The notes under the pieces are model-generated. The model searched no databases, was not told where the DNA came from, and saw only the letters and a list, made by a program, of their open reading frames with translations. Shown here piece by piece: positions 57,804 to 60,085 of a stretch of DNA of 64,000 bases. Each line of letters begins with the position of its first letter. The stretch's first letter is position 1. The position numbers and the translations under genes were made by a program. This DNA is from an uncultured Pelagibacteraceae bacterium (lineage in GTDB: Bacteria; Pseudomonadota; Alphaproteobacteria; Pelagibacterales; Pelagibacteraceae). Location: NCBI GenBank assembly GCA_902614125.1, contig CACMJW010000002.1:37244-101243 (forward strand), in the 5' to 3' direction.

Positions 57804-58550
57804 ATGGAGATAAATCTTATTTTCTTAATTTCAACAATTCCAGCAATAATTCTATTCGGAATAGCAAAATCTGGATTAGGAGGTTCTATAGCATTAATTT
57901 CAATTCCATTAATGACACTATCAATGTCATTAACAGAAGCATTAGCAATTATGCTACCAATTTTAATATTTTCAGATTTTATAGCGGTTTATAGATTTAG
58001 AAAAGATTATGACCTTGAAACTTTAAAATTAATTATCCCATCAGCTGCAATTGGAATTATTATTGGCTCATTTACATTTTCATATTTTTCTGAAGATCTT
58101 TTAAAATTTCTAATTGGATTGATGGGTTTTATATTTGTAGGGCATTACTTCATATTTAAAAAAAATAAAATTAAACCTCATAAAAAAAATAATATTAAGG
58201 GTTCAGTTTGTACAATTGTTGCAGGATTTACATCTTTTTGTGTACATGCTGGAGGTACGCCAACAAGTATTTATTTATTACCTTTGAGACTTAAAAAAGA
58301 AATTTATGTTGGCACAAGAGTAGTTTTTTTTACATTTGTAAACTTAATTAAGTTACCATTATATATTCATCTATCTATGATGAATAAGGAAACATTAATT
58401 AATTCTATTATTTTATTCCCACTATCGATATTAGGAATTTATATCGGTTTTAAATTACTTAAAATTATTGAGGAAAACTTATTTTACAACATTATTTATG
58501 CTTTAATTTTTATTAGTAGTTCAAAAATGCTTTATGATTTTCTAATTTAA
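57804..58550 (+). CDS. TauE/SafE-family (sulfite exporter-like) permease
   Basis: GIAKSGLGG; HAGG; 8 TM. Confidence 0.88.
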   Translation: MEINLIFLISTIPAIILFGIAKSGLGGSIALISIPLMTLSMSLTEALAIMLPILIFSDFIAVYRFRKDYDLETLKLIIPSAAIGIIIGSFTFSYFSEDLLKFLIGLMGFIFVGHYFIFKKNKIKPHKKNNIKGSVCTIVAGFTSFCVHAGGTPTSIYLLPLRLKKEIYVGTRVVFFTFVNLIKLPLYIHLSMMNKETLINSIILFPLSILGIYIGFKLLKIIEENLFYNIIYALIFISSSKMLYDFLI

Positions 58551-58587
58551 ATCTTCCATAAATTTGTAAAATATATATAAATAAAAA

Positions 58588-58650
58588 GTAGGGGTGTCCA
58601 AATGGACTGAGAAATACCCTTTGAACCTGTCCGGTAATTCAGAAAGGAAG
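58588..58650 (+). ncRNA. TPP riboswitch-like element (variant)
   Basis: GGGGT-GTCC-AAAT-GGAC-TGAGAAATACCCTTTGAACCTG directly upstream of the thiV-like gene; 3' arm diverges from consensus. Confidence 0.8.
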
Positions 58651-58654
58651 AAAA

Positions 58655-60085
58655 ATGAATAGTATTAATTTATTAAGCCAACAAACTGCAATTTTATTAG
58701 TCCTTGGAATATCAATAATTTTTGTAATAGTTGGAGTAGTTTATTCAAAAAATTTTAAAGGACTAAATAATTATCTTTTAGCAAATAGATCTGTTGAAAC
58801 ATTTTCTTTAACGTCCAGTTTAGTTGCATCAGCAATGGGAGCATGGATATTATTTGGACCTGCATCAGCTGCCACTTGGGGCGGAATTGGTGCAGTTATT
58901 GGATATGCATTAGGAACTGCATTTCCATTATTTATTTTAATATATCTTGGAACACAATTTAGAGAAAATTATCCAAAAGGAAAAACTTTAATAGAAGTAA
59001 TTAGATTAAAATATGGACCAAATTTATTTAAATTAATTTTAGTATTATCCATATTTTATATGACTATTTTTTTAATTGCTGAAGTAACTGCTGTTTCAAT
59101 GTTAATTAATTATATTTCTGGAACTGATTTATGGATTACAGCTTTAATAGTTATTATTAGTTCTCTGATTTACACATTATACGGAGGTTTAAGGGCTTCG
59201 ATTTTTACAGATAACATTCAATTTTTATTCTTGATTGTTTTATTGCTAATTACATTTTCTTATTTATTTAATTTTAATACAAATGAATTTAATTTTGATT
59301 ATATTAAAACAAAACAACCTCAGCTATTAAGCATGAATTATCTACCTAATTTTACAGCTGGACTTACATTTTTTATTGCAGTTGCAGCTACAAATTTATT
59401 CCACCAAGGAAATTGGCAAAGAGTTTACGCTGCAAAGAATACTGAAGTTTTAAAAAAAAGTTTAATTTTTTCTTTTTTAATAATTATTCCGATTGTTTTC
59501 TTTATGGGTTTTACAGGTTTAGTTGCAGTGTCATCTGAAAATCTAGTTGCACCTGATCTTGCTTTTTTTCAATTACTTTTAAAAGATCAGTATTTAATTA
59601 TTTCAGTTATTATTATTTTTTTAGCAATTTCATTAACAGTTAGCAGCATAGATACAATTATAAACGCAATTTCCAGCTTAATAATTGTAGATGGAAAAAA
59701 AATTATAAAAATTAAAAATTATGATTTGTTGTCTAAACAGACAATAATCATACTATCCATCATTGCATTATTTGTAGCCTCAAAGGGATTGAGTATTTTA
59801 TACTTATTTTTGTTAGCTGATCTTTTTTGTTGTGCAGCAGTATTAAGTATTTTTTATGGATTTTATTCGAAAACTTTTTTTGAAAAAAATGCATATGTAT
59901 CAATTATTGTAGGTTTAATCGCTGGTTTACTATTATTTCCAAGTCCAGATTTTTCTAAATCTATTTTAATTGGAATACTTTTTCCAGTTGATCTTTTTCC
60001 AAGTTTTGTCTCTCAATCGTTGTTATTTCTATCATTTTTGACTGCGACTTTTGTTCCTTTGTTGACATGGAATTTAAAAAAATAA
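58655..60085 (+). CDS. thiV: Sodium:solute symporter, ThiV-like (thiamin-precursor/HMP uptake)
   Basis: SSS motifs (YLLANR; GAWILFGP; YGGLRASIFTD; WQR); TPP-type leader. Confidence 0.82.
   Translation: MNSINLLSQQTAILLVLGISIIFVIVGVVYSKNFKGLNNYLLANRSVETFSLTSSLVASAMGAWILFGPASAATWGGIGAVIGYALGTAFPLFILIYLGTQFRENYPKGKTLIEVIRLKYGPNLFKLILVLSIFYMTIFLIAEVTAVSMLINYISGTDLWITALIVIISSLIYTLYGGLRASIFTDNIQFLFLIVLLLITFSYLFNFNTNEFNFDYIKTKQPQLLSMNYLPNFTAGLTFFIAVAATNLFHQGNWQRVYAAKNTEVLKKSLIFSFLIIIPIVFFMGFTGLVAVSSENLVAPDLAFFQLLLKDQYLIISVIIIFLAISLTVSSIDTIINAISSLIIVDGKKIIKIKNYDLLSKQTIIILSIIALFVASKGLSILYLFLLADLFCCAAVLSIFYGFYSKTFFEKNAYVSIIVGLIAGLLLFPSPDFSKSILIGILFPVDLFPSFVSQSLLFLSFLTATFVPLLTWNLKK

Follow-up and report, generated by a model that had tools for sequence, protein, structure and literature searches.

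The closest described system is the TPP riboswitch class (Rfam RF00059), represented here by the E. coli thiM aptamer (PDB 2GDI). In thiM, the T-loop U39-A43 recognises the pyrimidine moiety of TPP (PMC3764141), and G60, C77 and G78 are placed at the metal ions holding the pyrophosphate, with G78 contacting the pyrophosphate directly and A61 supporting C77 (PMC3764141; bioRxiv 10.1101/2025.01.21.634073). The SAR11 element examined in this study has carried the name of a TPP riboswitch in annotations from 2009 onwards (Meyer et al. 2009, PMC2704228), and a 2024 study of HMP uptake stated that the riboswitch's specificity for a ligand, and its activity, still need confirmation (PMC11452348). The literature searched, of which Carini 2014 (PMC4817611) and Weinberg 2017 (PMC5358364) were not part, holds no description of a lost pyrophosphate pocket, and no validated specificity variant class of the TPP riboswitch was found in the literature searched.

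Comparison of the element with RF00059 and thiM showed that it shares with them the P2-J3/2-P3 sensor with CUGAGA, an alignment over the full model, an ACCUG...AGG P4 with G60, the L5 sequence UAAU, and a position in the leader of a thiamin-related transporter. It differs in scoring below the gathering threshold, in lacking P1 and P3a, in having a core of only 60 nt, in a J4/5-J5/4 loop that consists of one pair and a G.purine mismatch and is devoid of C77 and G78, and in a Shine-Dalgarno inside P4 with no separate expression platform. The SAM-II and SAM-V riboswitches of Pelagibacter, and SAM-III, are translational switches which, like the variant, have the Shine-Dalgarno in the aptamer and no separate expression platform, although their folds and ligands differ from those of the variant.

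The HMP-PP riboswitch (thiS motif) is also a thiamin-pathway riboswitch and shows that pyrimidine precursors are sensed in nature (Atilho et al. 2019, PMC6478431), but it is an unrelated, terminator-embedded aptamer that acts as a transcriptional ON switch for thiS (PMC6478431). Cmscan found no match to it in the element studied here, the leader of which lacks a terminator and precedes thiV. Natural variants of other classes (guanine riboswitches turned to 2′-dG, xanthine or 8-oxoG, FMN riboswitch variants, and a change from SAM to spermidine) resemble the SAR11 element in retaining the fold of the parent class while a few of the positions that touch the ligand differ within a coherent, conserved sub-lineage; their new ligands were proven at the bench, whereas any new ligand of the SAR11 variant would be a prediction from sequence.

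The variant aptamer in the thiV leader

The DNA under study, hereafter the window, is a stretch of 64,000 nt of contig CACMJW010000002.1 (GCA_902614125.1) from an uncultured Pelagibacteraceae bacterium, whose draft genome comprises 1.18 Mb in 31 contigs and is 81% complete. The element lies in an intergenic gap of 104 nt between a TauE-family gene (57804-58550) and the symporter gene thiV (58655-60085), and the 3′ end of its core is 5 nt from the thiV start codon (ATG at 58655). An earlier note, made from the sequence only, had placed the element in a thiV leader, in agreement with the 476-aa symporter found directly 3′ of it. The features are as follows.

58590-58649, + strand: aptamer core of the TPP-derived variant riboswitch, 60 nt (matches to RF00059 and to the variant-specific model R1, conservation)
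58590-58595, + strand: P2 5′ strand, with the pairs A58590-U58620, G58591-C58619, G58592-C58618, G58593-C58617 and U58595-A58614, and G58594 bulged (pairing across leaders, RNAalifold)
58596-58607, + strand: minimal P3 hairpin GUCC-AAAU-GGAC, without P3a (pairing; P3a positions deleted in cmscan)
58607-58613, + strand: J3/2 pyrimidine (HMP-ring) sensor CUGAGAA, equivalent to thiM U39-A43 (invariant in alignment A2)
58614-58620, + strand: P2 3′ strand, A..ACCCU (pairing across leaders, RNAalifold)
58626-58634, + strand: P4/P5 5′ strand CCUGUCCGG, in which G58629 is the G60 equivalent and U58630 the former J4/5 nucleotide (161 leaders)
58635-58638, + strand: L5 loop UAAU, the canonical L5 core (invariant in A2)
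58639-58647, + strand: P4/P5 3′ strand UCAGAAAGG, in which A58643 pairs with U58630, A58644 lies opposite G58629 and A58641 opposite C58632 (161 leaders, RNAalifold)
58645-58650, + strand: Shine-Dalgarno AGGAAG, overlapping the P4 3′ strand (sequence)
58655-60085, + strand: thiV, sodium:solute symporter of 476 aa and proposed HMP importer (Pfam SSF PF00474, E 1.2e-18)

Scanning of the entire 64-kb window with cmscan at the Rfam gathering thresholds gave zero matches. In a permissive scan, TPP, SL2 and caiA were the sole Rfam matches with E values up to 10. In the permissive scan, the Infernal alignment to RF00059 that the earlier note had proposed as a check was obtained for 58580-58666; it spans the full model with 42.7 bits (E 2.4e-7), which is short of the gathering score of 54.3. 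The variant-specific model R1 gave 75 bits (E 7.8e-18) for the same element, which is the only TPP-like element in the 1.18-Mb genome. In the cmscan alignment, P2, P3 and the CUGAGA junction agree with the consensus and P3a is deleted. Non-standard pairs occur at one position of P5 (C.A) and at four out of five in P1, and the AU and CG of the consensus, which make up the 2-nt bulges of the pyrophosphate arm, are both deleted.

The pyrimidine-sensing half was analysed in two alignments, A1 with 65 distinct variant leaders and A2 with 56 rows. The results showed that P2 is paired in 95% of the cells of A1 and P3 in 93%, and RNAalifold returned the same P2 helix. The outer P2 pair covaries (A-U 38, C-G 7, G-U 4 and G-C 2), P3 shows U-A to C-G changes on both sides, and CUGAGAA is constant in all 56 rows of A2. 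The letters of the window (AGGGGUG, GUCC-AAAU-GGAC in P3, CUGAGAA and ACCC, followed by the arm and AGGAAG) bear out the earlier description of a canonical P2/P3 and TGAGAA with a minimal P3; the pyrimidine sensor features of RF00059, namely P2, P3 and the J3/2 T-loop U39-G40-A41-G42-A43, are all present in the variant. A P1 helix was also sought in the 65 leaders. Only 40.6% of its cells are paired, about the level of slid controls, and P1 was therefore rejected for the variant, as the earlier note had suspected.

An exact-pattern scan over one genome per prokaryotic species returned at least 120 loci. Among the 120 matches listed, a ThiV homologue stands directly behind the element in 116, with 43-79% identity (47-79% where the match covers 100 residues or more); another listed locus carries a 29-residue contig-end fragment with a ThiV-like N-terminus, and an NMT1/THI5-like gene stands behind the element in three. 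The gene context is thus that of RF00059, the leader of genes for thiamin synthesis or transport. Taken together, what stands in the thiV leader is a streamlined descendant of the TPP riboswitch, conserved throughout the lineage. In score, in the absence of C77/G78 and in the absence of P1 it departs from RF00059, yet its descent from that class is clear, and it probably works like members of that class.

The P4/P5 arm and the lost canonical pyrophosphate pocket

The arm of the window reads ACCUG-U-CCGG-UAAU-UCAG-AA-AGG, exactly as first described. The canonical CG is missing from its 3′ strand, and the cmscan alignment likewise deletes CG, so that C77 and G78 are gone and the earlier reading of a J5/4 in which AA replaces CG holds. 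To follow the arm across the lineage, 161 distinct Pelagibacterales leaders were collected with a pattern that leaves the pair and mismatch positions free. The result showed that the J4/5-J5/4 internal loop (A61/U62 and C77/G78) is now one Watson-Crick pair plus a G.purine mismatch. The new pair (61:77) is U-A in 107 leaders, A-U in 50 and G-U in 4 and is never broken, which supplies the covariation across SAR11 thiV leaders that had been called for. It is also paired in every sequence of A1 (A-U 36, U-A 25, G-U 4), and RNAalifold with no structure supplied predicted the same helices including the new pair. The independent events behind this covariation are few, since on the ThiV tree about two changes apiece account for V1 and V2. 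In the V2 form, a G stands at the place where G78 would be.

The base opposite the invariant G60 is A in 122 leaders, G in 38, U in one and C in none of the 161, and in A1 this position is non-Watson-Crick in 64 of 65 leaders. The P5 mismatch pointed out in the earlier note is a C.A (150 of 161 leaders, with U-A in the remaining 11), and L5 UAAU is constant in 56 of 56 rows of A2. Since the former J4/5 nucleotide pairs with the first J5/4 nucleotide and the pair covaries, P4 and P5 form one helix of nine positions with two conserved mismatches, capped by the invariant UAAU. By analogy with the thiM structures, L5 UAAU would dock on P3. With regard to the pyrophosphate sensor of RF00059, G60 is kept, C77 and G78 are gone, and the loop is shut by a covarying pair.

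The missing J4/5 A, which had been listed among the peculiarities of the arm, is indeed absent here but is not distinctive: a single-nucleotide J4/5 is present in ordinary alphaproteobacterial TPP riboswitches that keep CG (L234, L239). The distinctive change is therefore the loss of C77/G78, and what is special to the variant is the loss of CG and of P1.

The 3′ end of the arm had been proposed to double as the ribosome-binding site. AGGAAG in the window, and AGGGA in most relatives, is the P4 3′ strand and the Shine-Dalgarno at once, and the start codon lies 4-8 nt past AGG in 160 of 161 leaders. At 58648, the window reads AGGAA where 158 of 161 relatives read AGGGA, i.e., the G83 equivalent is changed to A; the change gives a closer Shine-Dalgarno match (AGGA) and the A56.G83 junction pair of thiM is lost.

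Distribution, origin and gene partners

RF00059 had matches in 123 of 151 Pelagibacteraceae genomes, roughly one element in each, and only 25 of them pass the cut-off; CG-less relatives score 35-60 bits and canonical SAR11 forms 65-72 bits. The V1 and V2 forms are below the cut-off, and the form of genus g14 reaches it in some genomes. From the elements matched in the 151 genomes, 110 leaders were compared. The results showed that a CG-less arm is present in 14 of 19 genera and that V1 and V2 together account for 66 of the 110 leaders, with the consensus ACCUG-N-C(C/U)GG-UAAU-UCAG-NN-AGG(G/A). Canonical arms occur in genera g10 and g12, e.g., ACCUG-AU-CCAG-AUAAUG-CUGG-CG-G-AGG with a 6-bp P1. 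These canonical riboswitches (L003-L020) belong to organisms of the same family as those with the variant and share its compact layout, with AGGAAG adjoining ATG, and all but L008 and L017 precede a ThiV-like SSF protein. Unlike the variant, they have P1 (6 bp, GUUUUC/GAAAAC), CG and the AU bulge intact, and their P5 covaries freely.

Two further CG-less arms were observed. In genus g14 (L022-L030, L093-L095) the arm reads ACCUG-G-AUUG-GUAAUU-CAAU-U-AGG with a single bulged G, and in one genome of genus g15 (L090) it reads AUCCG-CAUG-GUAAUG-CAUG-AGG with one G.A mismatch and zero bulges. The pyrophosphate arm is remodelled in several ways within the family.

Among the matches listed from the exact-pattern scan, 79 of 80 belong to Pelagibacteraceae or Pelagibacterales, the exception being one short contig, and they include HIMB058, HIMB2226, Ca. 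P. communis and a Lake Baikal MAG. The exceptional contig, of 2948 bp and binned as ‘uncultured Flavobacteriaceae’ (L166, CAYTIE010000064.1), carries a SAR11 variant leader and a ThiV 77% identical to that of the window, and is most likely a binning error. Outside SAR11, R1 was run on 150 other Alphaproteobacteria and matched there more weakly throughout, the best match having 49.8 bits compared to 75 for the window; the six best of these matches all keep CG, some with a single-nucleotide J4/5. One element (L047, 786499-786587) coincides in coordinates with the HTCC1062 intergenic region 786467-786574 listed as ‘TPP riboswitch’ (Meyer et al. 2009, PMC2704228), so the type strain HTCC1062 probably carries the same variant.

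Conservation is concentrated in the core. Of 61 scored core columns, 35 are invariant; mean identity is 90% in the core columns compared to 53% in 17 upstream columns, and the core is 60-61 nt long in nearly all leaders. On the CG-less side, the ThiV behind the element falls to about 47-54% identity with CCGGUAAUUCAG unchanged. From the draft state of the window genome one might suspect that the assembly or the sequencing is at fault, or that a pseudo-riboswitch is decaying in this genome only, but this is scarcely credible, as the identical arm is present in 107 other distinct V1-type leaders, complete genomes included. The earlier note had kept open both decay towards constitutive expression and substitutions unique to this assembly. 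An identical or near-identical arm is common to all 161 distinct leaders, the core is largely invariant and the new pair covaries while the flanks and ThiV diverge freely; decay and assembly error are therefore ruled out.

A FastTree phylogeny of 58 ThiV proteins showed a fully supported branch that splits the proteins behind CG-less leaders (V1, V2 and g14 form) from all those behind CG-keeping leaders, the canonical g10 and g12 forms among the latter. Such a tree fits a single loss of CG followed by retention of the CG-less form.

A third arm type, ACCUG-UUGU-AUAAUC-ACAA-CG-AAGG, keeps CG, has no J4/5 nucleotides and scores about 53 bits; it was observed at L031, L036, L039, L043 and L052 (4 of 20 other genomes sampled from the same genus). 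The ThiV behind it is only 49% identical to that of the window and groups with the ThiV of canonical leaders, which points to an exchange of entire cassettes, leader plus thiV, within Pelagibacter.

In genus g2, the variant riboswitch of some genomes stands before an NMT1/THI5-like gene instead of thiV. The protein at L168:2182-3097 is cytoplasmic, 289 aa long and matches Pfam PF09084 (E 4e-25), and further such loci are L209, L220, L053, L054, L056, L057, L060, L061 and L107. In five of these genomes (80-92% complete), thiV was not found at E ≤ 1e-20. These g2 genomes may have replaced the import of HMP by a THI5-type route that makes or salvages HMP-P. Canonical-type TPP riboswitches were also seen before other genes, namely a 254-aa short-chain dehydrogenase (SDR, adh_short_C2; L008, L017), which possibly resembles the OarX thiamin-salvage protein of PMC11223231, and a secreted Gcw_chp (PF09694) protein of about 223 aa (L021, L032); the SDR and Gcw_chp cases come from genera g17 and g12.

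The canonical SAR11 aptamers, with P1 and CG kept, also stand before ThiV-like symporters (45-48% identity). As to pathway content, thiE was found in 142 of the 151 genomes, among them all 57 high-quality ones, and in every genus regardless of riboswitch class; thiC was found in none of the 151 Pelagibacteraceae genomes of any genus, and riboswitch class and thiamin pathway content showed zero correlation across the 151 genomes. With canonical aptamers before thiV homologues in sister genera and the same pathway content, physiology does not demand a new ligand.

Expression control and the ligand question

Scanning of the leader detected no intrinsic terminator. A sigma-70 scan of the leader detected one promoter-like site, located within the upstream gene; shuffled sequences would be expected to give more such sites. 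When the 70 nt preceding the aptamer were scanned separately in 158 variant leaders, -10-like hexamers (at least 5/6 matches to TATAAT) end at -7/-8 in 36 and at -19 to -21 in 41 leaders (about 58572-58583 in the window), as a raw count that ignores relatedness and AT richness. Should these hexamers be real promoters, transcripts would begin at P2 or no more than about 13 nt away, and the absence of P1 would be explained; the hexamers hint at transcription starting at P2 or shortly ahead of it, but they are given no weight as evidence here.

The predicted stability of the arm is -3.4 to -6.3 kcal/mol in the variant and -8.2 kcal/mol in canonical SAR11 forms, and the variant arm with both mismatches repaired is predicted at -14.8 kcal/mol. 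In an AT-rich genome, where a single C-to-U transition would make a pair, 93% of the leaders (150/161) nevertheless retain the C at the C.A mismatch. On this basis, the leader would be a translational OFF switch. The two conserved mismatches would keep the Shine-Dalgarno hairpin weak, so that ribosomes could open it in the free RNA; ligand in the pyrimidine pocket, together with L5-P3 docking, would lock the arms side by side and hide the Shine-Dalgarno. The passage of the signal from one arm to the Shine-Dalgarno is a step that we infer.

It is conceivable that small-molecule sensing has been lost and that the structured leader sets a fixed level of translation or mRNA stability, or binds a protein. 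The absence of P1 fits such a role, as does a minimum-free-energy fold no more stable than shuffled sequences (z -0.07), a value that is not informative, and HMP uptake in HTCC7211 has been described as constitutively expressed (PMC11452348). However, the pocket bases (CUGAGA, GGGGUG/ACCC) are invariant in 56 distinct leaders although a plain hairpin has no need of them, and the same study found HMP uptake attenuated within an hour of HMP exposure and deemed the riboswitch a plausible cause (PMC11452348). We consider this explanation improbable.

Our best reading, which is tentative, is that the leader may be a relaxed translational OFF switch that reads the HMP ring, with TPP still the main effector. 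The ligand would be a thiamin-pathway compound recognised chiefly via its HMP ring; with pyrophosphate discrimination weakened, TPP, TMP, thiamin and HMP phosphates may all bind. Of these compounds TPP is the most abundant, and for that reason alone it would probably still be the main effector in the cell. The lost canonical pyrophosphate bases, the weak Shine-Dalgarno helix and the gene partners (thiV and NMT1/THI5-like), which are specific to the pyrimidine moiety, speak for such a switch; the G60 that is invariant and never Watson-Crick paired, and the invariant L5, speak against it, as they would fit a rebuilt Mg-pyrophosphate site equally.

Such a site is the core of the explanation that the element is still a selective TPP riboswitch, with a rebuilt pocket in which metal ions sit at the invariant G60.purine mismatch, and that genome streamlining changed the RNA and left the ligand unchanged. 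The counts opposite G60, with C in none of the leaders, are what this explanation expects; the invariance of L5 UAAU indicates that the two arms probably still dock; sister genera have thiV homologues behind canonical aptamers of 65-72 bits, and pathway content is equal in both groups. Moreover, P. ubique RNAs tend to shortness (Meyer 2009, PMC2704228), and the element is treated as a TPP riboswitch in the literature. However, A61 and the beta-phosphate hydrogen-bonders C77 and G78, at positions highly conserved in the class, are lost, and the base opposite G60 swaps freely between A and G even in near-identical leaders (L074 vs L075), which is not expected of a specific-contact base; both observations argue against a canonical reading of the pyrophosphate. 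In engineered thiM-based switches, A61U alone abolished the thiamine response (bioRxiv 10.1101/2025.01.21.634073). An unchanged selectivity for TPP is possible but doubtful.

The earlier proposal of an unphosphorylated ligand (HMP, AmMP or thiamin) leads to a more radical alternative, a switched specificity in which an HMP-ring precursor (HMP, HMP-P, HMP-PP or AmMP) is sensed and TPP is rejected, so that the imported compound feeds back directly. The canonical pyrophosphate contacts are lost and P5 is more constrained in sequence than in canonical SAR11 aptamers, which suggests a new contact surface, and both types of controlled gene, the thiV importer and the NMT1/THI5-like gene, concern only the pyrimidine moiety. 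Close variants with changed ligands exist in other classes (guanine and FMN variants, SAM to spermidine), and the ligand specificity of the riboswitch still needed confirmation in 2024 (PMC11452348). On the other hand, the pyrimidine pocket is unchanged, so nothing in the sequence indicates how TPP would be excluded; genera with the canonical and the variant form show no pathway difference, and cmscan found zero similarity to the known HMP-PP (thiS-motif) riboswitch. A switch of this kind is rather unlikely. It is unlikely, though slightly less so, that most SAR11 use the thiV leader to sense the imported precursor (HMP, HMP-P or HMP-PP) and not TPP, which would make the element the first TPP-riboswitch variant in nature whose ligand has switched.

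SAR11 bacteria cannot synthesise HMP, and they shape the marine vitamin B1 cycle. To our knowledge, thiV encodes the sole recognised, if proposed, HMP importer of SAR11, and an RNA of the type found in the window is the sole recognised regulator of thiV. The so-called TPP riboswitch of most SAR11 lineages has neither P1 nor the bases that give pyrophosphate specificity; 60 nt long and with its ribosome-binding site within the aptamer, it also offers a natural scaffold of very small size. If the HMP ring alone, or a precursor, is read, the most widespread riboswitch class would have its first specificity variant, and thiV expression in metatranscriptomes would need a different reading as a marker of B1 stress. 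If precursor sensing is true, the most abundant heterotroph of the ocean would control the uptake of a B1 precursor via a previously unrecognised riboswitch subclass.
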